From the NCBI GenBank assembly GCA_035656295.1, contig DASRSU010000008.1:8110-72109 (forward strand): a stretch of DNA of 64,000 nucleotides, read 5' to 3'. Origin of the DNA: Candidatus Bathyarchaeia archaeon. GTDB lineage: Archaea; Thermoproteota; Bathyarchaeia; 40CM-2-53-6. The translations under genes and the position numbers were made by a program. Below the pieces are notes generated by a model, which saw nothing but the letters and a program-made list of their open reading frames with translations, was not told the DNA's origin and ran no database searches. Position 1 is the stretch's first letter, and each line of letters begins with the position of its first letter. Below are positions 1 through 58,483 of this stretch, piece by piece.

Positions 1-1125
1 AAGTGGGGAAAATGCGATTGCAGATGCGAGTGGTGCAATGTCGCTCATTCTGGGGAGCCTGGACGACCAACGTTATTCTGACCCAATATCGCGAGAGGAT
101 AGGCGTTTATTGCCGACGAAGCCCATTGATTTTACGAGGAGAAATATGACTTGAGTTCCACGGACCAATGTCATATTACAGGATTATTGGACTCCAGTCG
201 TGGCAGAAACATGTGGGAATCACCAGACACCACAGCATTTTTTGCACCAAAGTTCATCTCTCGTGTGCTCTCACGATCCTTCCACGAATATTTCCTGACA
301 TTGCTACGGCTCTGAAATAGTTAGGACTCCACTAGTGACCAAGCCCCGTTCCTCCAGTTCTTTCAACCGTCTCTCCCACTCCCGGAACTGTTGATCGCGC
401 AGTATCGTGTTCGGCACATGCGGTGTGCGCATGTGCGCGGGTCCAGTGTCCTGTTCAGCAAGCGATAGTTCCCGATTCTTCATTGTCTCCTCTGAGATCC
501 GTTGGCTTTCGCGCAGCGGATACAATGGCTCGCGTCGCAGTGTTTCCTGGCTTGGCAGCCTCTTTTTTTTCTTACAGAGATTGTCAACTAGGGTCTGGCT
601 ATCTTCTGTTCTTTCCTGGTTCTCTTCTCGTTCCATTTTCCATTTCTCGCCTTCAGCTTGGGCGTCTCCTTTCGTAGGCGTGTCAATTCTTCTCCCGGAG
701 AAAACTCCCGGAGACCTGGACTAATCAGCCTAGATTAGAGAGGGGACGTTGTCTACGGACGATATCCGTCTCGACTCCTTTTTAAGCGATGTCGTTCCCG
801 AGAATCCGTTTGTCGTCCGGGACGTTAATCGTCTGACAAGGACGAAAAAATACATTGACACACGAGGAAAGAAACGCACCATAACTCGTCTATCAGGGCT
901 AGATAGATATGGCCACATGCAACAGTTTAGCCGAGTTAAGGATCACTTTTCGTCCAATATTTTCCGGGCCGACGTAGAAAAACGTCTATCTCGTATCATC
1001 CTGACGCACATCCAAAGACGTTAGACATCTGACAACGACATCCAGCTACATTTCTCGAAAAAAACGGCGGAGATTCTCAACCACTAGAGGGCATATCCAA
1101 AAAAAATCTCGCGAGACCCCGCGTT

Positions 1126-2304
1126 TCAAAGCTTCAGATCCCCCGTCTCACCGAGGGCCCGGTAGGCGTTCAGCGTTACCCACTTACTAGGCTCTCCGAC
1201 CTTCTCAACTCTGACCGGCTCCTTCCGTCCCTTACCTGAAGGATAGAAGGAATCTCCTTCCGTCCACCAGTCGCCCTCAAGGTTCCATCTACCATCAGGC
1301 CTACGCTTCGACAATACCACTTGCACCGCGCTCCTAGTCCTCTCATCATCCGCAAAGCCAAGCTTCGTCAAAACCCTGAGTCCATGCAGTACATCGTAAA
1401 AGTAGTACATGGGAAAATGCAGCCGTGTAAAGAACGGATACGTCTCACGCCAGTGATGATTATCCGACTTGTACACATGATGCATCAACAAAAACTCCGT
1501 ACCATTCTCAATCGACCTCTTCATCCTCCGCGTCCACTTACTACGCGGAATCTCGCTGTACGCCCACAACGGTTCGATAGTGCTCATGAAGGAGCTGTGT
1601 TTCACCTTCTTCTCTGGAAAATCACAGTTCCAGCCACCATCCTCCAACTGCTGCACCGGCAACCAGTCAACCGCCGTCTTCACTCGCCGATCATTACCAT
1701 ATCCTAACCGGATCAATGTCCGAATCATGTTACCCGTCAAACACGGCTCATCCCACCGCTTCCCACGAGTCTCAAGCCTGCTCGGACAGACGAAAGAACC
1801 TGACTCATTCTGATGCAGATCCATGAATCTCTCAGCCTCAGCCTTGATCCTCTCATCAGCTGGCACAGCCAGCTCAGCCAACAATATCAATGGCCAGACC
1901 GCACTAGTCCATTTCGGCCGGTAACAGGTGTCCTTTGGCGGCCAGAACCCTGATTTGGTCTGCTTCGCCATGATATTCCGGACAATCCGGGACCCCGGAA
2001 TCTTCTTCTTGGCCGCTACCACATCAGTGTCCTTGGGTCCCCGGTGCAGCAGTTCGGTGAGAGCTAGGTATCGTACGGAGGGATTGCTAGGCTCTAGAAG
2101 CCAATCCAGTGTTTGCTTATCGAAAGACGGCACGAACACGGGAGAACAAGGAAGGCCCAAAATAGGTTTTGCTGGCGAACGTATTCTGCCTCGCCCAAGG
2201 GAAGATACTTTAGAAAACAGCCGGGCCACGGACTTGAACCAGTTGAACCCGAAGCAGGAGTCAGACCGACCGGTCAAGAGTCTGGTCAGCGGTGGGATTG
2301 CCAT
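1126..2304 (-). CDS. alpha/alpha-toroid prenyltransferase / terpene-cyclase-like repeat protein (hypothetical)
   Basis: Long minus ORF (listed as 1126..2499) with Trp/Tyr/Gly-rich repeats (EDGGWNCDF, DGRWNLEGDWW) typical of prenyltransferase/squalene-cyclase repeat proteins. Start placed at internal Met (residue 66 of listed ORF) to remove a ~160 nt antisense overlap with the SRPBCC gene; the 5' end is uncertain. Confidence 0.45.
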   Translation of the reverse strand: MAIPPLTRLLTGRSDSCFGFNWFKSVARLFSKVSSLGRGRIRSPAKPILGLPCSPVFVPSFDKQTLDWLLEPSNPSVRYLALTELLHRGPKDTDVVAAKKKIPGSRIVRNIMAKQTKSGFWPPKDTCYRPKWTSAVWPLILLAELAVPADERIKAEAERFMDLHQNESGSFVCPSRLETRGKRWDEPCLTGNMIRTLIRLGYGNDRRVKTAVDWLPVQQLEDGGWNCDFPEKKVKHSSFMSTIEPLWAYSEIPRSKWTRRMKRSIENGTEFLLMHHVYKSDNHHWRETYPFFTRLHFPMYYFYDVLHGLRVLTKLGFADDERTRSAVQVVLSKRRPDGRWNLEGDWWTEGDSFYPSGKGRKEPVRVEKVGEPSKWVTLNAYRALGETGDLKL

Positions 2305-5781: not shown

Positions 5782-6732
5782 ATGATCAATCCCTCTGCTG
5801 GATCCGACAAGATTGTCCAAGTAGAGAATCTCTCAAAGAAGTACGGAAATATTACAGCGGTCAACGGGATCTCATTCAACCTCACCAAAGGCGAAATCTT
5901 CGCTTTCCTAGGTCCTAACGGAGCCGGGAAAACCACCACCGTGGAAATCCTAGAAACTCTCCGAAACCCGACTGGCGGTCGAGCACATGTCCTCGGTTAC
6001 GACGTTAGCAAACGCACAGACCAAGCCGAAATCCGGAAACGCATTGGTGTCCTCCCACAGGATTTCAATGCAATCGACCGGCTAACAGTCCGAGAGAATA
6101 TCAATTATTTCGGAGCCATGTTCAAACACCAACTGGACGCGGACCAACTCATCGAACAGGTCGATCTAAAGGATAAACGAGACGAACAGTTCAAGAGTCT
6201 CTCTGGCGGGTTGAAACAACGAGTCGGCCTAGCAGTAGCCCTTGTAAACGATCCCACCCTCGTCTTCCTTGATGAGCCCACAACAGGCCTCGACCCACGC
6301 GCACGTCGGGATGTATGGGGCGTTATCGAACGGTTGAAGAAACAGGGAAAGACAGTCTTTCTAACAACTCACTACATGGACGAGGCCGAGTATCTGGCAG
6401 ACATCGTCTCGATCATTAACAATGGCCAAATCATTGCGTTGGGAACACCTGACCAGTTGATAGACTCCTACGGCGGTAAGAAGACGCTAATCATCCGCGA
6501 CGCAGGCCCACAGGGTCTCAAACAGCTACCACCGAACATTTCGAAAGCGGATCTACGCAACGCTGGTGACATCGCAATACCCCTCAACAATGGAGAACTC
6601 ACCAACATACTCCTCGAAATAGGGAAAACCCCGCTTCACGATAAGGAGATCGAGGTCAGACGTCCCACGCTGGACGATGTCTTTCTCAACCTTACCGGGC
6701 GTAGAGTGTCCGAGGAGGGAAACGGTGCATGA
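5782..6732 (+). CDS. ABC transporter ATP-binding protein
   Basis: Walker A GPNGAGKTT, ABC signature LSGGLKQRV, Walker B LVFLDEPTTGLD, H-loop TTHYM. Confidence 0.92.
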   Translation: MINPSAGSDKIVQVENLSKKYGNITAVNGISFNLTKGEIFAFLGPNGAGKTTTVEILETLRNPTGGRAHVLGYDVSKRTDQAEIRKRIGVLPQDFNAIDRLTVRENINYFGAMFKHQLDADQLIEQVDLKDKRDEQFKSLSGGLKQRVGLAVALVNDPTLVFLDEPTTGLDPRARRDVWGVIERLKKQGKTVFLTTHYMDEAEYLADIVSIINNGQIIALGTPDQLIDSYGGKKTLIIRDAGPQGLKQLPPNISKADLRNAGDIAIPLNNGELTNILLEIGKTPLHDKEIEVRRPTLDDVFLNLTGRRVSEEGNGA

Positions 6733-10285: not shown

Positions 10286-10666
10286 TTGGCAAGACCATGG
10301 ATACCCGTACTCCCCCCAGGAACAAGCGACCGCGCAATAGCCGCCTTCGACAAGATCAGCTCAGACGATGATTTCAGGATCGTTCTGGTAAGCATTTACC
10401 AGAAAAATGTCGCATCACTTCAGTACGTGAAGACGGACTTTCTTCTGAAGATCATGGTCCAGGATCTCCTCGAAAAATTCGACAATCTCGATCGGATCGA
10501 AGTATCGAAAGAAGAATTAGCAGCACTCAGACAGGCAAAACTTGCAGTAGACTCTGCCGCGACTAAATGGAAAGAACAGAGAGCCTACGCTTGCACGCTA
10601 CTCGTTATTCTCACACTGAGAAAGATGGTCCAGGAGAACCTGGTAAAATTAGAGATCCAAGAGTAG
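10286..10666 (+). CDS. hypothetical protein
   Basis: 126-aa ORF; upstream 10051..10284 is a 77-aa 2-TM ORF in the same orientation. Confidence 0.35.
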   Translation: MARPWIPVLPPGTSDRAIAAFDKISSDDDFRIVLVSIYQKNVASLQYVKTDFLLKIMVQDLLEKFDNLDRIEVSKEELAALRQAKLAVDSAATKWKEQRAYACTLLVILTLRKMVQENLVKLEIQE

Positions 10667-10675
10667 CTGTTAGAG

Positions 10676-13167
10676 CTAGCTTGTCTGTCTCTTGTGGGTC
10701 ACCTTCAATGAGATTCGCTTGACAAAGACAATTCCTTTTCCAGTGACGATTTCAAATTCTGCTGGGACAGGCGATGTCTTTCGGCCCGCAAGTCTCTTCA
10801 CACTGATCAGCCTCGCAGTCGATCCTCCCTTCTGAACTGCGTTTAGTTCTATTACTCCGTCCACTAGGTTGTCGACGTTCGATCTTACTTCTTCAGGGAT
10901 CGAACCTCTCGATCCGGCGAGTACCAAGATCCCGTTATTGTTCTTGACCTTGGCGCTGAGGGCTCTGAGAAAGTTGATGGTCGTCTGGGGTTGGACTCCA
11001 TTGAAGATCGGTGCGATAGAGTCCATGACGATCATGATAGGTCCCCCCTTCGCGTTTTCGATCATGCTGGTTACTTGGATCCCGGTCTCCGTGAAGTCAA
11101 CCGGGTCCCTTACCTGTGGATTCTCCACCCCTGCAAGAGCAGAATAACAGTCTAGAATCCTGAAGGTTCCATTCTTCAGATACTCATCCACATCCCACCC
11201 GAACGACTTCATGATCCGTTGAATCTCCGCAGGAAAGGCATCATACGTGATGAGCCCTGCATGCTTTCTGTTGAGAGTTGTCGGTACATCAATTCGAGGC
11301 TAAGCGTTGTAGTTCCAGAGCCGGTGTCACCAAGAATCAATAACGTGGTAGAGGGCGAAAACTCTCCGCCTGTAAGTTTGAAGAGTTCGTCGAACGACCC
11401 CTGTCCCGTGTTGAACCTTCTGACTAGCAGTAGACCTGCCCCTCCCGATCCAGCTATTAGAGCTGCTACGAAAAACCAGAACGTAAGAGACTGTGGAATC
11501 GCCGCTGCGGGCGATGTATTGACAATGACTGACTGCGTCTGCTGACCCGCATTGCCATAAGCATCCATGACTTTGACTGTGGTCACCCACAGTCCAGAAG
11601 GATCCGCTGACCGGACAACGTAGCTTCCCGCCCATCTCGACTGACCCTGAACGTACGAGAGCGACAATGGGGTTCCAGTCGGACTTCCATTAGAGGAAAA
11701 TGTTACAGTCACTGTCCCATTGGTGAAAATCGTACCGTTGGGGTTTGTGATGGTTGCATAGACGGGTATCACTTGCCCGGTCGTATATGTCTGGTTGGGA
11801 ATTGTGAGAATTATGTTGAAAGTTGCGAGTTGTACATTGAAGCCCCGGACAACACTCGTCAACGGGCCCCCGTTCCCGTAGCCGTCGTCGAAACTGTTCG
11901 GCTCAATTGTGGCTACCCATGCTCCCGTTGGAGCATTGATCGGTGTCTTGGACACCGCTTGGTATAGACCCGTACTAGAATTGTAGTTTGCGGTTATGAT
12001 GAACGATGTTGTTCCGTCTGGTGCAGTGATTCGGATGCTGGTCGACCCGGCCTGGACGGGTAGACCATTCAGGTAGAATACGCTGAAAGAATAGTATTGA
12101 GACTGTGTCCGTTGAATTACACCTTGTGCGACCGTGATCTGTGCGATCGTCACGTTCGTCGGATACACTGTAAACTGACGCACAATACCAACTACGGGAC
12201 CAGTGTTTCCATAGCTATCATTGAACATGCCCGGGTCGATGGCCGCCAACCAGTTGCCTTTCTGGCTACTAGCAGGTATCATGTATGTGGCTCGATATGC
12301 TGCGTAGGTCGAGTTGTAGACTGCAGTGGCAAAGACAGAGGTTACACCATCAGATTCCGTTAGCCTAATCTTCGCCGATCCCGTCTGCACAACTGGTCCA
12401 GTAGAGTAACTAACGGTGAAGGATACCGACTGTGTCTGAGTTCTCTGAATAGTTACCTGGCCGAGCAGCAGTGGCGAGATTGTGACATTGGCGGGATTCA
12501 TAGTGAACGCCTGCCTGTCAGGAACAATCTTGCTAGTCTGGCTTCCTGTAAGGGAGACCGTCCAGCCACCAATTGGTGCGTTTACGGGTATCTGCCATGA
12601 TGTTGATAATTGGCCGGTGGAGTCAGCGGTGATCGTGGTAGGATAGCCATTTGCGGAGGTTGAGCCCTGGAAAATATTGATCGTCGTCATTTCCAGGTTA
12701 CGGTAACCTGTGGCCTTGATGGAGACGGTGTTAGTCCGCTGGTAAGTCAGCCTGTCAGTTAGTCCAACTTGGAATTGTCCACTGGCTACGTTTGGGACAC
12801 TGGTTGGCAGGGTCTCGTTGATTATGACATTGTAGTTTCCTATGAGGACGATGCTCGTTGCAAAATCTCTCGGATATTGAAGACTGATAAGGAATGAGGC
12901 AGCTGTAGCAACAGTCTGGTTCGAATGATTCCTCACCACCCCCGACGGGTCCGTTACCCCCCATGTGAACTGGTAAGCGGTCCCGATAGTTGCGCGAGAA
13001 ACATTCATGACCAATACGTCTGCTGCCGTCCCAGTCTCCTGCTGTCTCGCGGGTACCGGCGTGAACGTGAAGACTTCTCCGGCCGCATGAACGTGAGGGA
13101 TAGCTGGGGTAAGGAGTACGAGAAAAGATAGGACCGGAATTCCAATACGGAATAGTTTGGAAATCAA
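10676..13167 (-). pseudogene. surface receptor-like protein with a cytoplasmic KaiC/RecA-like domain, split across two frames near 11213-11300
   Basis: From the N-terminus: signal peptide (LVLLTPAIPHVHAAG), ~520 aa with tandem ~110-aa repeats and many N-x-S/T sequons, one TM helix (FWFFVAALIAGSGGAGLLLV), then a KaiC-like start GSFDELFKLTGGEFSPSTTLLILGDTGSGTTTLSLEL with a degenerate P-loop (Lys->Thr). This frame then stops (11209). The domain continues in the other frame without its own upstream start (GLITYDAFPAEIQRIMKSFGWDVDEY...IMIVMDSIAP...VLAGSR...). Confidence 0.65.
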
Positions 13168-13467
13168 GGACTATGCAGCCTTATCTTAACACCCAGACCA
13201 GTGCGTTACGACCCGCATCGGTCCTTGATTGGACGACGCCTATGGTAAGAGTCCCGTAACTGAAAATGCTAGGACACAGTACCTTGGTCTCGTTTATTTG
13301 CCAGTTTGAGCTGGACTCGTCAGAACTGCGAGTATCTCGTCGAACCGTTGTCTACTGATCTTTCTGGTTGGTTCTATTTGAAGCTCTGACCGACAGCCGT
13401 TCTTCCACAAATCTTATCGCGAAGACCTGTTGCTCTAGTTTGCGAGGCAAGAAAAGGAGGGCATGTG

Positions 13468-13638
13468 ATGGCGTTTGTTTTCTGGTTCAGCTGGGCCCTG
13501 TTCATCGTGTTTGAGAGGATCACGCTCGGCATGCCTTGGCCAGCGAAGGATTTCCTGATTTCGCAGTTTGCAGATGAGTTTGAGGCGCAGCGGCAAGTTC
13601 TCAAAGTCAGGAGTATTTCGAAACATTGGGGCTCTTAG
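13468..13638 (+). CDS. small hydrophobic ORF (56 aa) with a strong Shine-Dalgarno
   Basis: AAAAGGAGGG 6 nt upstream of ATG 13468; MAFVFWFSWALFIVFERITLGMPWPAKDF... Shorter than the ORF-track cutoff. Confidence 0.25.
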   Translation: MAFVFWFSWALFIVFERITLGMPWPAKDFLISQFADEFEAQRQVLKVRSISKHWGS

Positions 13639-13768
13639 CAGTCTAGTAGTTCTCGTGTCGCTCGCTTGCACCGTGGGACTGGACCCTTCTCGGCGCGCAT
13701 ATCAGATTCTTCCTCTGGCTTGAACCGATAGCGATGTTCTGGCTTGTTCGGATGACGCGCACTGTGTA

Positions 13769-14671
13769 TTAAGTCACAGGCGCGACCTGTCCCACGATGG
13801 ATTTTGATCGCAACCCGGCCACCTTCGCCTCAAGTCCGGGAGCATCTAGGCGCTTGCACATGGTCGAGAAAGACTCGTCTGGTCCCTTCCAACTTAGCTC
13901 ATCTGGTGATTTGATCCTCGGCTCGTCCTTCCTAAGTGTCGCTAGGTCTCGGAACAGTAATGCGAGCTTCATGTTCTCCCGCAGCGTCTTCGCCAGCGCG
14001 TCGTATCGACGCGGTTTTATCTTCCACTCTGTTCCATCTGCGGGAATAGCTTCCAGGTGAGTATAGGACGAGAGTACAGCGGAGGTCGATTTTTCTCCCC
14101 AGCCCTCCAAGCCTGGATATCCATCCGAGGTATCTCCGACCAATGCGAGATAATCAGGAATCGACGAAGGCGCGACACCATACTTTTCGATAACGCCAAT
14201 CTCGTCCCGGTAGCGCTGGGCCCGTCGGTCCAGTTGTAAGACACGATCGCTAACGACACACTGGGCCAGGTCCTTGTCCGGCGTGCAGATCAAAACATGA
14301 TGAACTTCACTGAACCTACCCAATGAGGCGGCCGCGCCCGCCAGTGCATCGTCAGCCTCTAATTCCACCATTGGCCAGACCACAACACCCATCGCTGTAA
14401 GAGCCTCCTCCAGCAATGGAAATTGCGCCAACAACTGTGGAGGTACGCCCTCCTCCGTCTTGTATCCGGGCCAGAGATCATTGCGGAAAGAACGGATCAC
14501 GTGATCTGTAGCAACACCGACGTGCGTCACACTATTCTCAAGCATCGACGCCACACTATCGAGCACGCCAACAACAGCCCCAACCTCTTCTCCCACAGAA
14601 TTCACGTGCGAGGGCACTGCGTAGAAGTGTCGGAATAATTCGTATGTGCCATCGACGAGGTAGACGTCCAA
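13769..14671 (-). CDS. bacterial-type 5'-3' exonuclease / flap endonuclease (Pol I N-terminal domain homologue, ExoIX/Xni-like)
   Basis: HVGVATDH, acidic VELEADDALAG, and an H3TH region LALVGDTSDGYPGLEGWGEKSTSAVL. About 300 aa. Confidence 0.8.
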   Translation of the reverse strand: MDVYLVDGTYELFRHFYAVPSHVNSVGEEVGAVVGVLDSVASMLENSVTHVGVATDHVIRSFRNDLWPGYKTEEGVPPQLLAQFPLLEEALTAMGVVVWPMVELEADDALAGAAASLGRFSEVHHVLICTPDKDLAQCVVSDRVLQLDRRAQRYRDEIGVIEKYGVAPSSIPDYLALVGDTSDGYPGLEGWGEKSTSAVLSSYTHLEAIPADGTEWKIKPRRYDALAKTLRENMKLALLFRDLATLRKDEPRIKSPDELSWKGPDESFSTMCKRLDAPGLEAKVAGLRSKSIVGQVAPVT

Positions 14672-14780
14672 CGCGGGAAATACTCGGCTACAATACGGCT
14701 GATCTTCTTGATTATCCCTTCGCCTTCTCCCATCAGCTTAAATCACGTTTCATCATGAGCCAGTCCAGGAGCCAGTCCGC

Positions 14781-15218
14781 ATGGCTACTCGTGCGACTAT
14801 AGCTTTCGTTCTCTCTATCATCGGAGCAACTTATCAGATAATGTCGTTTGGACTAGCAGCGCTTGTCGATTTGAGGGCTTCTTCTCTGTACTTGTACTAT
14901 GGTGGTTTCACAGACACGTTCCTACTGACCCTGGTCACTTTCTGGGCTGCCAGCCATCTCCTGGAAGACTGGAAGGGTCGAGCAACCTGGCCCGCGATAA
15001 TACTCGCGCTAGGCATTGCAAATGTATCCAACCTTGTCATTGCATATTTCCTGCCGTACAATGTACTGGGAACACCCTTGGGCACGAACCCGTCGCTAGC
15101 GCAATTCCTCGTAATAATACCGGGATCAATACTCGCACTGGTCGGAGGCCTCGTCGGGTTCGCGGCCGTACGACAATATTCACGGGAACACGGCCATGTA
15201 ATCGTACACCAGCCCTGA
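14781..15218 (+). CDS. hypothetical integral membrane protein
   Basis: 145 aa, four hydrophobic helices. Confidence 0.45.
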   Translation: MATRATIAFVLSIIGATYQIMSFGLAALVDLRASSLYLYYGGFTDTFLLTLVTFWAASHLLEDWKGRATWPAIILALGIANVSNLVIAYFLPYNVLGTPLGTNPSLAQFLVIIPGSILALVGGLVGFAAVRQYSREHGHVIVHQP

Positions 15219-15287: not shown

Positions 15288-16928
15288 ATGTCTGAAATGC
15301 CGATCTATATTTTGAGAGAAGGCACCAACCGCACCCGCGGAAAGGATGCCCAGCGAACCAACATCATGGCCGCCAAGATCATCGCCGAAACAGTCCGCTC
15401 AACCCTCGGTCCCCGCGGCATGGACAAGATGCTGGTCGCCAGCATCGGAGACGTCGTCATAACAAACGACGGCGCCACGATCGTGAAGGAGATGGATGTT
15501 CAACATCCCGCAGCCAAGATGCTGGTCGAAGTTGCCAAGACACAGGATAGCGAGGTTGGAGATGGGACCACGACCGCTGTCGTACTAGCGGGCGAATTAC
15601 TAGCAGGCGCGGAAAAACTTCTCGACAAGGACGTTCATCCCAACGTTATCATCGACGGTTACCGGGACGCAGCGGAGAAGGCCTTAGAGGTTTTAGATGA
15701 TATTGCTGTCAGCATCAAACCTGACGACGTAGAACAATTGAAACAGGTCGCGTTGACCAGTCTAAACACGAAAGGCATCTTCGGATCACAGGAACACTTT
15801 GCGGATCTAGCCGTCGAAGCCATTCGCGATGTAATGGAAAGGACCGGTGACAAGATCAATGTCGACCTCGACCTTGTCAAGGTGATCAAGAAGCATGGAA
15901 AGAGCCTGGACGATACCGAGCTCGTGAACGGGATCGTCATCGACAAGGAACCATCTCATTCCGCGATGCCGAAGGTTGTGAAAGACGCGGCCATCGCATT
16001 GCTGAACGCGAAGCTCGAGATCGAGAAGGGCGAGTTCACTAGCGAGATCAGGATTAACCGGCCTGAAGAGATGCTGCAATACTTGGATGAGGAGACTAAT
16101 CTTCTCAAGAAGATGGTTGACCAAGTCGAAGAATCCGGCGCCAACGTATTACTCACGCAGTCCGGGATTGATGATGAAGCTCTGGCAATGCTTGCGAAGC
16201 GAGGAATATTCGCCATCAAGAACGTCAGCAGCAGCGACCTAGAAAAGCTAGCCAAAGCTACTGGCGCCAAAATAGTTGGCACCGTCAAAGATCTCTCGGC
16301 CGCATCGCTTGGCCAAGCCAAGCTCGTCGAGGAGGTTAAGATTGGCGACGACAAGCTGACCTATGTCCGGGAAGCCAAGAATCCGAAAGCGGTTACGATA
16401 ATGATACGCGGCGGATCCGAACACGTAGTAGACGAGGCAGAGAGGGCATTACACGACGCATTATCCGTTGTCAGAGATGCGGTTGAAGATGGAAAAGTTG
16501 TCGCCGGTGGAGGCGCCCCCGAAGCAGAACTTGCTAAGCGATTGAAAGATTATGGGAGGAATGCTGGAGGCAGAAGTCGATTAGCTATCACGGCCTTCGC
16601 AGAAGCATTAGAGGAAATACCTGTCGCACTGGCCCAGAACGCGGGGTTAGATCCTATCGATATCATGGTCGAGCTCCGGGCGAAACACAATACTCCGACC
16701 AACAAATGGTATGGCGTAGACGTATACACGGGCAACATAGTCGACATGTGGAAACTGAACGTCATCGAACCATTACGAGTCAAGAAACAGGTCGTCAAGT
16801 CGGCCTCTGAAGTCGTAAACATGCTCATACGCGTCGACGACGTGATCGCTTCGAAGGGTGGAGGTCCTAGTTCTAGTGCGCCCAAGGGGCCGCCTGGCGG
16901 CATGCCACCCGGCATGATGGGAATGTAG
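15288..16928 (+). CDS. ths: thermosome subunit (group II chaperonin)
   Basis: 546 aa; [29 protein letters not shown], and a C-terminal [10 protein letters not shown] tail. Confidence 0.96.
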
Positions 16929-53284: not shown

Positions 53285-56200
53285 TCACGCAAAGTCGCCG
53301 ATCAGGAGTTTCTGCTGTGTCTCCGCTTCTTTTTCGGCGGGGAGTGGTTTGAAGGTCTCGGACAATTCGACCTTGATCAGTCCTAGCCTCTGACGGTAGT
53401 ATTCGCGGATGTTGTAGCGTGCGACCATTTCTGTAGCCACGTCCAAGTATTTTTCGACTCCGCTGCGGAAGACAGTCCCAGTGAGTTTTCCGCCACACCG
53501 GTAACACTTACCGCCTAGCGGGGCGCGTCGAGGTTTCCACCCGCACTTCGTGCATCTTGCCCTTTGCGAAGTAAACGTTCGCAGGTTACCAACTAGATCG
53601 CGTAGGATATGTGTAGACAGGACTTTCACTGCTACTTCTTCTGCTTTGACTGCGACTATCTGGTCCGCCAGTCGCAACTGTTCTTTCACCTTTTCAAGCA
53701 TCGTCGGCAACTCCTTGTAACTACTTACGAGTCGTCCGTCGTCAAGGTCTAATGTGGAGTGCGTGAGCCCTATGTGCCAGTGATTGCCTCCGTTGCCTAC
53801 GCAAACATTCAATGTTGGAACAAGGTTCTCTACATCTTTCGGATGAGTAGACTGCAGCGTCTTCTCATAAAACTCGACTGGGAATCGGTCAACAGTTTCG
53901 ATGTTCAGCGCCTGACGAGCCACTTCTGATGGGTTTAGCACTGGAGAGAGCAGTAGAGGTGCATCCATCAACCCCCCTATTCGGTCAGGCATGAATTCCC
54001 TCGAAAAATTGAGCAGTACGTCGAATAATAGTGACACTGAATCCTCGTCTCCGTCACAGTCCCTGCGCTTGGCAGCGTGCCAGAACGGATGGGCGTAACA
54101 TACGCTCGCCTTGGTGAACCCAATGATCCTGGCTACTACTCCTACCGAAGTGTGCGGCGAGAGTCCTACGACTAGTCGACCGATAAGGTCCTCTTTGGAT
54201 CTGGCTCCGTAGAACTTTTCCTGGCCGTAGTACAGGGTTAAGAGGTCGTCAAGGAATTTCGAGACTTTCACAAGGTACAGTGCGCAGACTTCCGGGACGA
54301 CAAGGTCCTGTAGTTCAAGCGGACAAAGTTGATCAGGAGACTCCAATGGTTTGCCTTCGACATCTTTCGTGTAACCTAGCAAACGTGCTTCTTCGATGGA
54401 GAGTCCGATTTCTCTGGGCCGGAAATGTGTCAGTATCGCGTTGGTGGCATCGAATCGTACTGTGCCGTCTTTGAACACTGAAACGTCATTCTTGGATCGC
54501 AGAATCCCCTTCTCTAAGGGCTCAGGAGTCTTTGACTTGTTGATCAGTCCCTTTACTCCTTTGACAGGCTCAGTAGGCTTGGCAAGTGATAGCCGATGCG
54601 CCGCATCATCGAGTAGACGGTCTAGATCCAGTGGCTTCTCATGGTAAGGTACTGTCTCGAGATTACAGTTTCCGCACACGTCGGAGCCCGGTTGACCGCA
54701 CCGTGGACACCATTTACGTTGAACTGTGTATGAGCCACAAACTGGACACTTGACACGCGGTTCCCACGTATCACACTCCGGACAGATTCTATCCATGATC
54801 TCGAGTGATAGTGAGAGCTTCTTCGAGGCTTCCACAATGTCCCGTCTTGATCCCCCGAACTGCCCTGTGGGAAAAAGTGAGTGTACCCTCGGTGTCATCA
54901 CGCGCTCCTTTGCTTTCTCTGGGCGTCCCATTCTCGCGCCTACGAAAACAGGAGCCTTGTTCTTGATGGGGAAACCGGCAAGTTTGCTGAGATTGTCGAG
55001 CACGGTGTCGCTCGATTGATCCATCAAGAGTTCGGGTCGCTCGGCCCCGAGAAGAGCGTTTACGATGAGAGCATCATCTCTATCGACTATTATTGAACTG
55101 TTCAGAATCTTATGAGGGAGACACAACCGTTCAAGAATAGTTTTTAGCCGTTCATCGTTCGAGAAAACCATTGAGCCGTCTTCCATTTTGGAATGGCTCC
55201 CTACTCGGTGATGGAAATGCTTCAGATCCTCAAGTTTTATCGAATCCCAAAACCAAGTATGGAAGGGATGAAGCGGTAAACTTAGGATCCGGGATATTTC
55301 GAGGGCTTCCTCAGCGGTAGGCCTCGTTGACAGTGGGTCGTCAACCATTTTTTTCAGTCTGGAAAAGGGAACTGTCAAGGATTCTGGGACGGTCTGGCCT
55401 TCCAGCTCTACAAGTTTCGTGGTCAAGAGTTGGGCCCACCATTCCTCTACAAACCCCGACGCGACAAGGATTCGATTGTTCTCGAGAAATTCTCCGTATC
55501 CAACCATCAAGTCTCCGATGAAGAGAATCTCTTCGATACGGGTCTTGATCGCTTTGGCTTCAGTGACATTGCCGACTCGCAATACTGAGCCGTCGGTCAA
55601 CTTGACAACTGGGGGCTCGATGCTGTCGACGGCTGTGACGATGCCGGCTTTTCCTGGCCTCTCCATCTTTAGCTGCACTCCTACTGCGAGAAATCCTCCA
55701 AGAATCTCCATTGTGCATGGGTGTACCCCTACGCTGGCAAGGCCAGTGTTCCTGGCGTGACCATAACGTATCCGGAATCCACCATGCGCGCTTGGAAATG
55801 CGAAGATGGGACGTCCGCCAACAACGTCTTCCATGAACATGAACTCCTTCGCCTCTTCCCCATCGGCGGAAGATGTTTTCAACTGGGCGAGCCAGTCCCA
55901 TCCCTCAAGTCCCAGTCTCTCGACTATCCTCAGGACTTTCGTCGATCTGCCAAGCAGTCCATCGTTGACGACTCGTAGCGCGCCGCCACGTACACGGTTC
56001 GTCTCTATTCTGGGAAGGTTCCGGTTGACGACCACCTCGACAGGATCTGTCTCGACTCCATTCGGCTCGATTGGAAGGCTCATCATCGTATTGTGCAATA
56101 CATCATCCGGGTTGCGATATTGAAAGCGTGCAACCATCCGTTCGTAGAGTCGCAGTTCTTCGACGAATCTGCGTGCTTCTTGTTCTGTGGCACGGTAGGG

Positions 56201-56713
56201 CTGAAGGTTCAGTTTTCTTCGGACATGGTCCGCCACTATCATCGTAAGACCCATTTCTGTTCCACCGGCCGATCTCATGGGACCAGCAAAATACACGGCA
56301 AGATGTTTAGTTCGATCTGGGTTCGTCCGGATCTTTACGTCGTAGATTCCTTGGATTGGGGCAACGGTCACTGCCTCATCCAAGACAGCTAGGGCAGTCC
56401 GTACGGCCCGTTCAGCCGCTTCCTCCTCGTCGAAGCTTCCGAAACGTCCCAGCACAATCTCTTCACTGATTTTCAGCGCTGTCTCTTCGCGCGAGATCAC
56501 GTTGTTCAGTTCGCGGATTCTTGCAGCTACACCAGGGGGACCAACAGCTTTCTCAACGCGGTCGGCTAGGTCATAGGTAGTCTGTGATTCTACTTTTATT
56601 GAAGGGTCTAGACCTTTGCCGCGGCAGAGAGTTGCTATCGCATACTGCCGTTCATACTCTTCATGCAGCCCTTTCACATAATCGGATTCAGGTCGTGTTT
56701 CATGGCTCTGCAT
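53285..56713 (-). CDS. polD: DNA polymerase II (PolD) large subunit DP2
   Basis: 1142 aa without intein; conserved DP2 blocks including the Cys clusters (CPECDTWEPRVKCPVCG, CPRCG...CGNC, CTKCGWKPRRAPLGGKCYRCGGKL) and GGRPIFAFPSAHGGFRIRYG. Confidence 0.95.
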   Translation of the reverse strand: MQSHETRPESDYVKGLHEEYERQYAIATLCRGKGLDPSIKVESQTTYDLADRVEKAVGPPGVAARIRELNNVISREETALKISEEIVLGRFGSFDEEEAAERAVRTALAVLDEAVTVAPIQGIYDVKIRTNPDRTKHLAVYFAGPMRSAGGTEMGLTMIVADHVRRKLNLQPYRATEQEARRFVEELRLYERMVARFQYRNPDDVLHNTMMSLPIEPNGVETDPVEVVVNRNLPRIETNRVRGGALRVVNDGLLGRSTKVLRIVERLGLEGWDWLAQLKTSSADGEEAKEFMFMEDVVGGRPIFAFPSAHGGFRIRYGHARNTGLASVGVHPCTMEILGGFLAVGVQLKMERPGKAGIVTAVDSIEPPVVKLTDGSVLRVGNVTEAKAIKTRIEEILFIGDLMVGYGEFLENNRILVASGFVEEWWAQLLTTKLVELEGQTVPESLTVPFSRLKKMVDDPLSTRPTAEEALEISRILSLPLHPFHTWFWDSIKLEDLKHFHHRVGSHSKMEDGSMVFSNDERLKTILERLCLPHKILNSSIIVDRDDALIVNALLGAERPELLMDQSSDTVLDNLSKLAGFPIKNKAPVFVGARMGRPEKAKERVMTPRVHSLFPTGQFGGSRRDIVEASKKLSLSLEIMDRICPECDTWEPRVKCPVCGSYTVQRKWCPRCGQPGSDVCGNCNLETVPYHEKPLDLDRLLDDAAHRLSLAKPTEPVKGVKGLINKSKTPEPLEKGILRSKNDVSVFKDGTVRFDATNAILTHFRPREIGLSIEEARLLGYTKDVEGKPLESPDQLCPLELQDLVVPEVCALYLVKVSKFLDDLLTLYYGQEKFYGARSKEDLIGRLVVGLSPHTSVGVVARIIGFTKASVCYAHPFWHAAKRRDCDGDEDSVSLLFDVLLNFSREFMPDRIGGLMDAPLLLSPVLNPSEVARQALNIETVDRFPVEFYEKTLQSTHPKDVENLVPTLNVCVGNGGNHWHIGLTHSTLDLDDGRLVSSYKELPTMLEKVKEQLRLADQIVAVKAEEVAVKVLSTHILRDLVGNLRTFTSQRARCTKCGWKPRRAPLGGKCYRCGGKLTGTVFRSGVEKYLDVATEMVARYNIREYYRQRLGLIKVELSETFKPLPAEKEAETQQKLLIGDFA

Positions 56714-57388: not shown

Positions 57389-58483
57389 ATGATCGCGGAT
57401 AAGGTCCGGCCTCGCAGAATCGTGCTTCACTTTGACCTGGACGCGTTCTATCCTAGCTGTGAGATCAGGAGGGATCTATCCCTTGCTGGGAAGCCCTTGA
57501 TCGTTGGTGCAGATCCAAAGCAGGGTCATGGTCGGGGAGTAGTCACGTCCTGCAGTTACGAGGCGCGAAAGTATGGCGTCCGTTCAGGCATGCCTATTTC
57601 AATCGCGTACAAACTTTGCCCTCCCCCCACCGGTATCTACGTGAAACCCGACTTCGAGCTTTACGGTAAAACATCCGACAGGGTCATGCAACTGCTCCGA
57701 AAATACGGCGACAGTTTCGAACAGACCAGCATCGACGAAGCCTTCCTCGACGTTAGCGAAAGGTGCAGAAATTTTGAAAGAGCGGCAGAACTGGCGAAGA
57801 ACCTGAAAAACGACCTGAAACAGTCTGAAGGCCTCACTACGAGTGTTGGCATTGCTCCGAACAAGTCCGTCGCCAAGATGGCGTCTGACATTCAGAAACC
57901 TGATGGTTTAACAGTTGTAACGCAGGAACAGCTTCGTTCATTTCTTGAACCACTCCCAGTCGAAAAAATTAGTGGTGTCGGTAAGAAAACCGCACAGTTT
58001 CTGCATGAACACGGGATTCAAACGATTGGCCAGCTACGGAACGTCCAGGCCAAGAAGCTTACAGATTGGTTTGGAAAGGGGGGTATCTGGCTCTGGGGTA
58101 TAGCGAACGGGATTGAGGAGACTCCGGTCGAAGAGAGGCCGTTGCGAAAGTCGATTAGCGTAGAACAGACGTTCGAACGGGATGTTCAGAACAAGCAGGT
58201 TGTCAAGGAAGCTCTGGAGGCGCTGATCCAAGAAGTACATGAACGCCTTCTCGGTGAGGGACTCTTATTCCGGACCATCGGGATCAAGATCAGGTTCGAA
58301 GGTTTCCAGACGTTTACAAGGGAAAAGACCCACACTGGCTACGTCGACGACCCTCTCGTCGTGAACGACTATGTGAAAGGGCTCTATCGAGAGTTCGAGA
58401 AGGACCGTCGTAAAATCCGGCTTGTCGGCGTGCGACTGTCAGACCTTAAGCCTGCGAAGGGTAAACAGGCGACACTGGCCTAG
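57389..58483 (+). CDS. dpo4: Y-family DNA polymerase IV (Dpo4/Dbh/DinB-like)
   Basis: IVLHFDLDAFYPSCEIRRDLSLAGKPLIVG, SIDEAFLDV, and an HhH region ISGVGKKTAQFLHEHGIQTIGQL. Confidence 0.9.
   Translation: MIADKVRPRRIVLHFDLDAFYPSCEIRRDLSLAGKPLIVGADPKQGHGRGVVTSCSYEARKYGVRSGMPISIAYKLCPPPTGIYVKPDFELYGKTSDRVMQLLRKYGDSFEQTSIDEAFLDVSERCRNFERAAELAKNLKNDLKQSEGLTTSVGIAPNKSVAKMASDIQKPDGLTVVTQEQLRSFLEPLPVEKISGVGKKTAQFLHEHGIQTIGQLRNVQAKKLTDWFGKGGIWLWGIANGIEETPVEERPLRKSISVEQTFERDVQNKQVVKEALEALIQEVHERLLGEGLLFRTIGIKIRFEGFQTFTREKTHTGYVDDPLVVNDYVKGLYREFEKDRRKIRLVGVRLSDLKPAKGKQATLA

Follow-up and report, generated by a model that had tools for sequence, protein, structure and literature searches.

The 64,000-nucleotide window analysed here, the whole stretch taken from contig DASRSU010000008.1 of a Candidatus Bathyarchaeia archaeon (GenBank assembly GCA_035656295.1), hosts a gene encoding a standalone bacterial-type (PolA-like) 5'-3' exonuclease/flap endonuclease (FEN) of 300 amino acids (aa), hereafter the nuclease. 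The gene spans positions 13769..14671 on the minus strand, starts with TTG, and is filed in GenBank as HZY93773.1; its product is 100% identical to the database protein P0001, encoded on a 1,051,031-bp Candidatus Bathyarchaeia contig of a metagenome-assembled genome (MAG). A PIN-like 5' nuclease domain (PF02739; aa 3-165, 14177..14665, minus strand) carries residues D7, D56, E105, D107, D108, D132 and D134 and the arch residues Y70 and K71. It is followed by a H3TH DNA-binding domain of the SAM-fold type (PF01367; aa 166-266, 13874..14176, minus strand), in which D173, D180 and D183 mark invariant columns. Most of a helical C-terminal extension lies at aa 267-300 (13772..13873, minus strand), as delimited by alignment and by the helices 268-274 and 278-293 of an AlphaFold model. 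The nuclease gene is separated from a divergently transcribed membrane-protein gene by an intergenic region of 109 bp (14672..14780), where no Shine-Dalgarno (SD)-like motif is found ahead of the nuclease start. This region is conserved in an independent assembly from another sample, GCA_030157145.1 (locus L081), which hosts an 88%-identical orthologue of the nuclease.

Both domains score well above the Pfam gathering cut-offs. PF02739 (5_3_exonuc_N) is matched at 111 bits against a cut-off of 34.3 (E 6.5e-32), over profile positions 2-164 of 164, and PF01367 at 68.2 bits against 40, over residues 166-266. The XPG_N and XPG_I profiles of FEN1 gave no match at E <= 0.01 in the Pfam search. Among NCBIfam models, the N-terminal third of DNA polymerase I (Pol I) matches best, and the nearest solved relatives by sequence are the Pol I enzymes of M. 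smegmatis (E 3e-29) and Taq (E 1e-24). The AlphaFold model (pLDDT 79.7, pTM 0.80, rising to pLDDT 91-95 over residues 251-280) finds its closest folds, by Foldseek, in plastid exonuclease 1, Taq, FenA and ExoIX (E 1e-16 to 1e-12), and matches archaeal FEN1 (3ory) weakly (E 3e-5, 14% identity). The nuclease is thus a bacterial PolA-type 5' nuclease, and not an archaeal FEN1, as had been proposed in a first-pass annotation of the window, which had recognized the H3TH pattern. FEN1 is the enzyme that Archaea normally use to remove Okazaki flaps (PMC3914693). The two enzymes share the superfamily fold (PIN-like core, helical arch and helix-turn-helix module) and the expected chemistry, but the nuclease has neither XPG domains nor a C-terminal PIP box; they are functional analogues derived from different branches of the superfamily.

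The 5' nuclease domain of Pol I (Taq, M. smegmatis, E. coli) features the same two Pfam domains in the same order, and every metal-binding Asp/Glu residue, as well as the Tyr-Lys pair of the arch, aligns with the nuclease. In contrast to Pol I, however, the nuclease is free-standing, lacks the 3'-5' exonuclease and polymerase domains, and is only about 30% identical. Full-length Pol I models are accordingly far from reached (NF004397, 176 bits against 720; TIGR00593, 150 against 600), and the NF004397 match covers only profile positions 3-275 of 889. Free-standing enzymes of approximately 250-330 aa, as are E. coli ExoIX/Xni (3zd8), M. smegmatis FenA (6c33) and plastid-localized exonuclease 1 (9l55/9l56), come closest to the nuclease in fold (Foldseek E 4.5e-16 to 2e-12, TM 0.65-0.76), but are only 22-26% identical to it. 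Neither the Xni model NF007017 (90.7 bits against 261) nor the PRK14976 models of other standalone 5'-3' exonucleases (111 against 434, 107 against 305 and 86 against 347) reached their cut-offs. ExoIX/Xni has five acidic residues and one metal site (PMC5499597), whereas the nuclease keeps the full two-site carboxylate set.

The residues of interest have been compared in an alignment including 122 sequences of the archaeal clade described below, 78 bacterial homologues and the Pol I domains of Taq and M. smegmatis. The nine metal-binding carboxylates (D7, D56, E105, D107, D108, D132, D134, D180 and D183) are invariant in the 200 homologues, and align with Asp/Glu residues of the two Pol I domains. 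The seven metal-site carboxylates listed for E. coli Pol I (D13, D63, E113, D115, D116, D138 and D140, to which the H3TH aspartates are to be added; PMC5499597) are all matched, and the carboxylate set of metal sites A and B of PolA-type FENs is complete. Y70 and K71 are similarly invariant in the 200 homologues, and align with the Tyr-Lys pair of Pol I (K71 corresponding to K83 of T5 exonuclease). The arch differs from that of Pol I in one respect. The YKxxR motif is replaced throughout the subfamily by WPGYKT[S/E/G]xG (aa 68-71 are encoded by 14459-14470, minus strand), and the arginine found at the position of Taq R85 is missing from every member, archaeal or bacterial. Its loss could change the handling of substrates.

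Missing arginine, non-native origin of the gene and low AlphaFold confidence in the arch (residues 60-70) and in a loop of the H3TH domain (180-194) might all suggest a decaying or catalytically dead relic devoid of present function. We hold this highly improbable. All members of the family, the bacterial ones too, lack the arginine, FENs free of substrate normally have disordered arches (PMC5499597), and catalytic carboxylates and Y70/K71 do not vary. At least 120 archaeal variants retain an uninterrupted reading frame, and most substitutions are synonymous (95 synonymous against 34 non-synonymous codon differences between window and L081). The nuclease is under purifying selection, and it looks, from its residues, like an active FEN with two metal sites, untethered to the sliding clamp: neither PIP motifs (Qxx[LIVM]xx[FYW][FYWL]) nor beta-clamp motifs were found among the members examined, 122 of them archaeal and 78 bacterial.

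The nuclease belongs to a distinct subfamily of standalone proteins of about 290-300 aa, marked by the helical C-terminal add-on and by the missing arginine of the Pol I arch. A conserved block (WxGP...F...RLDAP), located approximately at aa 255-290 and starting inside the H3TH part, is common to the archaeal and bacterial standalone members and is part of an extra C-terminal module that Pol I lacks. Its members are common among the Acidobacteriota, Acidimicrobiales, Gemmatimonadota and Chloroflexota of soil. It has no curated NCBIfam model of its own, and its members are at present labelled "flap endonuclease" or "5'-3' exonuclease H3TH domain-containing protein".

The host of the gene is an archaeon, because the nuclease shares the same DNA with a thermosome subunit gene (15288-16928; 766 bits), which starts 617 bp away, and with the gene encoding the large subunit of the archaea-specific polymerase PolD (53285-56713; 1345 bits), 39 kb away. 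The archaeal context claimed by the first-pass annotation is therefore sound. The divergent neighbour of the nuclease encodes a membrane protein of 145 aa (14781..15218, plus strand), which has no family match in Pfam and NCBIfam searches, and the start of which is conserved in L081. As the source is a MAG, and most relatives in reference genomes are bacterial, a bacterial fragment could in principle have been joined to, or binned with, archaeal DNA. Such an artefact is exceedingly improbable. Nuclease, thermosome and PolD genes lie on one contig of 1.05 Mb, composition is uniform across the junctions, and other members of the clade are found on archaeal-labelled contigs of 41 to 183 kb. Moreover, the same flanking genes, encoding proteins 93-95% identical to those of the window, are found in the same order in the independent L081 assembly, which makes a chimeric assembly very unlikely.

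Relatives of the nuclease have been searched in one genome per GTDB species (185,579 species). The search yielded 558 relatives, and the best 80 were analysed. Two are from Bathyarchaeota (67% and 64% identity), and the other 78 from soil-type bacteria (54-64% identity), including Acidobacteriota (Vicinamibacterales among them), Acidimicrobiales, Gemmatimonadota, Chloroflexota and a few Proteobacteria. In protein databases clustered at 90% identity, the best 120 clusters, 66-90% identical to the nuclease, include all the matches bearing archaeal names and none bearing a bacterial name; the archaeal clade thus amounts to at least 120 clusters. PF02739 proteins are most unusual in Archaea: a 2017 catalogue of the PIN superfamily assigned 17,107 of about 17,700 to bacteria and 2 to Archaea (PMC5499597). 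According to Raymann et al., Fen1 is essentially a single-copy gene present in the majority of archaeal genomes, and imports of bacterial replication genes into Archaea are rare (PMC3914693).

Neighbour-joining trees (291 columns, 200 bootstraps), in which bacteria are represented by the 80 sequences most similar to the query, place the archaeal nucleases among those, likewise standalone, of soil bacteria, with identities of 50-67%. All 122 archaeal-labelled sequences fall into one clan in 199/200 bootstraps, whereas a separate clan of the bacteria is recovered in only 4/200. When the tree is rooted on Pol I, the archaeal clan lies eight nodes deep among bacteria, and the midpoint root separates Archaea plus three Chloroflexota sequences from the other 75 bacteria. 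Within the family, archaeal and bacterial proteins are on average 58% identical (maximum 67%), about the same as bacterial proteins to each other (mean 62%), and the Pol I 5' nuclease domains from two bacterial phyla, represented by Taq and M. smegmatis, are only 42% identical. Midpoint root and identities, which need no outgroup, exclude a divergence dating back to the separation of the two domains of life.

The alternative that the gene is ancestral in Archaea and was lost many times, or that it passed from Archaea to bacteria, draws on the monophyly of the archaeal sequences, which are set on a distinct stem (0.07 substitutions per site), and on the unreliable root, which makes reciprocal monophyly formally possible. 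This alternative is given very little probability, as identities across the two domains are of the kind seen within bacteria, both roots fall inside bacteria, and PF02739 is nearly absent from Archaea. The family is moreover spread over at least five bacterial phyla, and is restricted in Archaea to one soil subgroup of one class; the direction from bacteria to Archaea is deduced from this broad bacterial and narrow archaeal range. The bacterial origin of the nuclease gene is well supported by these sequence comparisons. The donor was probably some soil bacterium. Chloroflexota, sister to the archaeal clan in 67/200 bootstraps, are only weakly favoured, in trees with a nearly saturated Pol I outgroup and a bacterial sample made of the 80 closest sequences.

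The tree of the bacterial nucleases (loci L003-L080) does not follow phyla. The nucleases of a Woeseiaceae and of another gammaproteobacterium are placed among those of Vicinamibacterales and Gemmatimonadota, Gemmatimonadota nucleases are found at two places, and the nuclease of a MAG labelled Bifidobacteriaceae groups with those of Chloroflexota and Acidimicrobiales. Identity between phyla averages 62%. The family appears, judging from the tree, to move horizontally among soil bacteria too.

The composition of the nuclease gene is ordinary. The GC content is 0.55, against a window mean of 0.518 (z 1.48), the GC content at third codon positions is 0.593 (z 0.43), and the codon-preference score has a z of -1.15 (rank 8/42), all values within the spread of the window genes. 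The comparison of GC and codon usage, proposed as a check in the first-pass annotation, hence reveals no anomaly. The location of the gene has been compared in relatives. Window and L081 share the same gene order, and hence their own fixed address for the nuclease. In the main clade the address is different, the nuclease following a cassette of ArsR-type HTH_20, AHSA1 and DUF1801 genes in L082, L087, L088 and L089, and a rearranged version of the cassette being found in L083. The genes of the main-clade cassette (HTH_20, AHSA1, DUF1801, FMN_dh, GSDH, RraA) were found neither at the bacterial loci nor in the window, and therefore no block has been co-transferred. Across pairs of loci, the identity of the nucleases tracks the identity of their neighbours.

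Ordinary composition, a fixed address in each sublineage and co-divergence with neighbours tell that the transfer is old, and not recent. Horizontal transfer as put forward in the first-pass annotation thus holds as to the bacterial origin, sustained by tree and identities, but not as a recent arrival. Orthologues broadly present and vertically inherited in the lineage had been named as the observation that would speak against transfer: the gene does fill the soil Bathyarchaeia clade, with conserved synteny, but its ultimate bacterial origin stands.

The gene probably moved alone, and no vector is visible. Clustering of nuclease neighbours at 83 loci revealed no conserved partner gene, and no neighbour is shared across the bacterial loci. 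Collections of plasmids and phages contain no close homologue, only Pol I-type matches at 36% identity or less. No mobile genes were found at the borders of the nuclease, no direct or inverted repeats across the 10.4-13.8 kb interval on its 3' side, and nothing emerged from tRNA and Rfam scans of the window. Scans of the 13.1-14.9 kb interval for sigma-70 promoters and intrinsic terminators returned matches at chance level only.

Several transfers, either as repeated entries from bacteria or as spread from archaeon to archaeon after a single entry, could also be envisaged. No synteny is common to the window/L081 type, the main-clade cassette, L001 and L002, and the branch leading to the window subclade is long (0.134). 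We regard this as unlikely. Repeated bacterial entry is contradicted by the single archaeal clan, the position of the gene is fixed within each sublineage, and divergence tracks that of the neighbours. In addition, a 652-aa surface protein encoded downstream of the window nuclease is 41-44% identical to the product of the gene located directly downstream of the nuclease in L089, which may hint at a position that the sublineages once had in common. These data are best read as one old acquisition, after which the gene descended mainly vertically while its surroundings were rearranged.

Some observations weigh against this reading. The position of the nuclease does differ among sublineages (window/L081, main clade, L001 and L002), the nucleases of L001 and L002 having no neighbours homologous to those of the window or to the main-clade cassette, and later archaeon-to-archaeon transfers could have taken place. 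The trees are neighbour-joining trees of 291 columns, in which the Pol I outgroup is near saturation (distance ~1.4-1.5). Organism names are attached to only six sequences of the archaeal clade; for the other 116, the assignment to Archaea comes from their place in the clade and from the few contexts inspected. Nuclease activity and cellular role are drawn by analogy from the family.

A small gene had been tied to the nuclease in the first-pass annotation. An open reading frame (ORF) of 56 aa (13468..13638, plus strand), said to be unlisted, is in fact annotated in GenBank as HZY93772.1. It is preceded by the SD-like motif AAAAGGAGGG (13452..13461, plus strand), in which GGAGG is located 7 nt before the ATG at 13468. 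Motif, start codon and frame are all there, but the ORF is not upstream of the nuclease: the two genes are convergent, being on opposite strands with stops 130 nt apart, and the ORF lies beyond the 3' end of the nuclease. The encoded protein has a hydrophobic N-terminal segment followed by a strongly conserved motif, PWP...QF.DE[FY].AQR. L081 keeps the ORF uninterrupted; over the first 47 codons, 13 synonymous and 4 non-synonymous codon changes are counted, and third codon positions account for 13/17 substitutions. P0129 represents another orthologue, the third. When 1.84 billion representative proteins were searched exhaustively, seven representatives of this rare family at 50% identity were identified. 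Six range in length from 45 to 87 aa and share F[SW]F[AS]W[AS]LF[IL]VFE...PWP.[KR].[FY].....F.DE[FY].AQR, and the seventh (P0126) is a 628-aa protein with eight short matched stretches. No description of the family was found in Pfam or NCBIfam. P0130, a 520-aa protein assigned to the same 90%-identity cluster as the 56-aa protein (P0128), is an unrelated subtilisin-like peptidase, and was discarded as an artefact of database clustering. The 126-aa protein preceding the ORF in L081 was considered as a conserved partner, and rejected, as it is not conserved with the small-ORF family.

The 56-aa ORF is, on comparative grounds, a real conserved gene; it is accepted as such for its conservation, and not for the GGAGG. 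GGAG is kept in L081 and in the region upstream of P0129. GGAGG occurs in the window at chance frequency (145 observed against 143 expected). It precedes 3/45 window genes, against a background of 1.3%, and the other two genes (starts at 6729 and 39106) directly abut the gene before. In L081, 12 nt separate the 126-aa gene from the start of the 56-aa ORF that follows it. The use of SD motifs by downstream genes of operons is ordinary in Archaea. GGAGG therefore fits an internal gene of an archaeal operon, and says nothing on bacterial ancestry, for which it had been taken as a mark.

A recent transfer into this archaeon of a two-gene bacterial fragment, made of the nuclease and the SD-preceded ORF, is highly unlikely. 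The bacterial type of the nuclease, its GC content slightly above the window mean and the GGAGG ahead of the ORF would fit such an event, but third-position GC and codon score are ordinary, the closest bacterial proteins are only ~60-64% identical, and the whole archaeal clade has the gene, with conserved synteny. The two genes converge, and in L081 another gene, encoding a TMEM175-like protein, lies between them. Homologues of the ORF were found beside none of the 78 bacterial nuclease genes, nor at other archaeal loci of the nuclease; its distant relatives adjoin SMC/ScpAB or ZnuA genes with no nuclease nearby. The 56-aa ORF is an unrelated native small-protein gene, unlinked to the nuclease transfer, and the idea of a joint arrival is contradicted.

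In the window, the interval between the two genes contains the 3' remnant, about 40 codons long, of the TMEM175/DUF1211-like membrane-protein gene (13646..13772, plus strand), as revealed by blastn against L081. L081 82-1266 aligns with window 14843-13646, and nothing in the window corresponds to L081 1267-1849. In L081 the gene is frameshifted into overlapping ORFs (854..1774 and 1141..1509, the former on the minus strand). The TMEM175 match is weak (19 bits, below cut-off). The gene is decaying in both genomes. The genetic contexts of the 56-aa family vary (window, L081, L084, L085, L086). L084 and L085 host distant homologues of the 56-aa ORF and of the 145-aa protein and no nuclease, but are too divergent and rearranged to serve as an empty site. 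L085 2-250 corresponds to window 14781-15023 (145-aa protein, 51%) and L085 1626-1799 to window 13468-13581 (56-aa ORF, 58%); the two homologues are 1.4 kb apart, with no nuclease in between, and in a relative orientation unlike that of the window. L085 may reflect what this neighbourhood looked like prior to the nuclease, or in its absence.

A segment of 2.8 kb (10659-13464), which separates the 126-aa gene from the 56-aa ORF in the window, is absent from L081 (at 1989-2008). It contains a KaiC-like ORF (10676-11212, minus strand) and the gene of the 652-aa surface protein, which has an MG2 domain (11209-13167, minus strand). No repeats that would suggest a mobile element flank the 10.66-13.46 kb indel. 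The segment may have been lost from L081 rather than inserted in the window, since L089 too encodes a homologue of the 652-aa protein downstream of its nuclease. The KaiC-like ORF, 178 aa in length, matches only positions 67-228 of the 231 of the KaiC profile, and overlaps the stop of the 652-aa ORF by 4 nt. The tail of the latter, inspected by eye, features a transmembrane stretch followed by a degenerate P-loop (GDTGSGTT). Together the two ORFs look like a surface protein fused to an ATPase domain and split over two frames, by a frameshift, a sequencing error or a split gene. Elsewhere in the window, a Y-family (DinB-type) polymerase is encoded beside PolD (57389-58483, plus strand). It reaches the model of bacterial Pol IV (348 bits against a cut-off of 256) and fails that of Sulfolobus-type Dpo4 (214 against 339); against solved structures, E. 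coli Pol IV scores 194 bits and Dpo4 178. This polymerase may represent a second bacterial-like repair gene.

Taken together, the nuclease is probably an active standalone enzyme of the Pol I type, acquired once from a soil bacterium by an ancestor of the soil Bathyarchaeia clade and transmitted since then mainly by vertical descent. One copy of the gene, moving alone, would have entered the ancestor of this soil-dwelling clade, adopted the composition of the host, and been inherited mainly vertically under purifying selection. By analogy with the family, the 5' flap or 5' end would thread through the helical arch (Y70/K71), the H3TH domain would grip the duplex downstream, and the nine carboxylates, which make up two Mg2+ sites, would bring about cleavage at or near the flap junction. 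The lack of a PIP box points to a role outside the PCNA-tethered replisome. Because clamp-binding motifs are missing, the gene stands alone and its contexts vary, the nuclease would most likely serve as an accessory enzyme for the processing of repair patches, primers or flaps, working beside native FEN1 and RNase HII.

In a bolder view, the nuclease would have taken over primer and flap removal, or would share it with native FEN1, in a case of non-orthologous displacement; in a milder version, it would belong to a habitat-wide pool of repair genes that soil bacteria and Archaea exchange, C-terminal module and altered arch conferring a substrate preference of its own. Both versions seem quite improbable. 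A tblastn search of 1.1 Mb of sequence with P. furiosus FEN-1 gave no match, a result uninformative on the genome. Precedents for the acquisition are bacterial DNA gyrase and NAD+-dependent ligase (Halobacteriales), which entered at the base of an archaeal clade and were kept (PMC3914693). There too a bacterial gene of DNA metabolism was gained and retained by an archaeal clade, but the gene is a different one, the recipients here are soil Bathyarchaeia, and there is no sign that a native counterpart was replaced.

The gene was already in GenBank under generic names, and is a known kind of enzyme in an unusual host; in the searchable literature, no paper was found that deals with a FEN of bacterial type in Bathyarchaeia. 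What is known of how such nucleases work is unchanged. The great majority of the enzymes by which Archaea replicate and repair DNA are eukaryotic in type, and few bacterial imports, as those of gyrase and NAD+-dependent ligase, have been documented (PMC3914693). To this short list the nuclease adds a clear case, fixed and selected across a clade of soil Archaea in at least 120 variants. The find is useful for the annotation of generically labelled proteins, and points to an uncharacterised subfamily of standalone FENs common to the main phyla of soil bacteria, in which identity across phyla is unusually high. Had FEN1 been displaced, this would be a non-orthologous displacement within an archaeal replication apparatus that is otherwise eukaryote-like. 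In any event the clade offers a tractable test case of a foreign nuclease beside a PCNA-based machinery.

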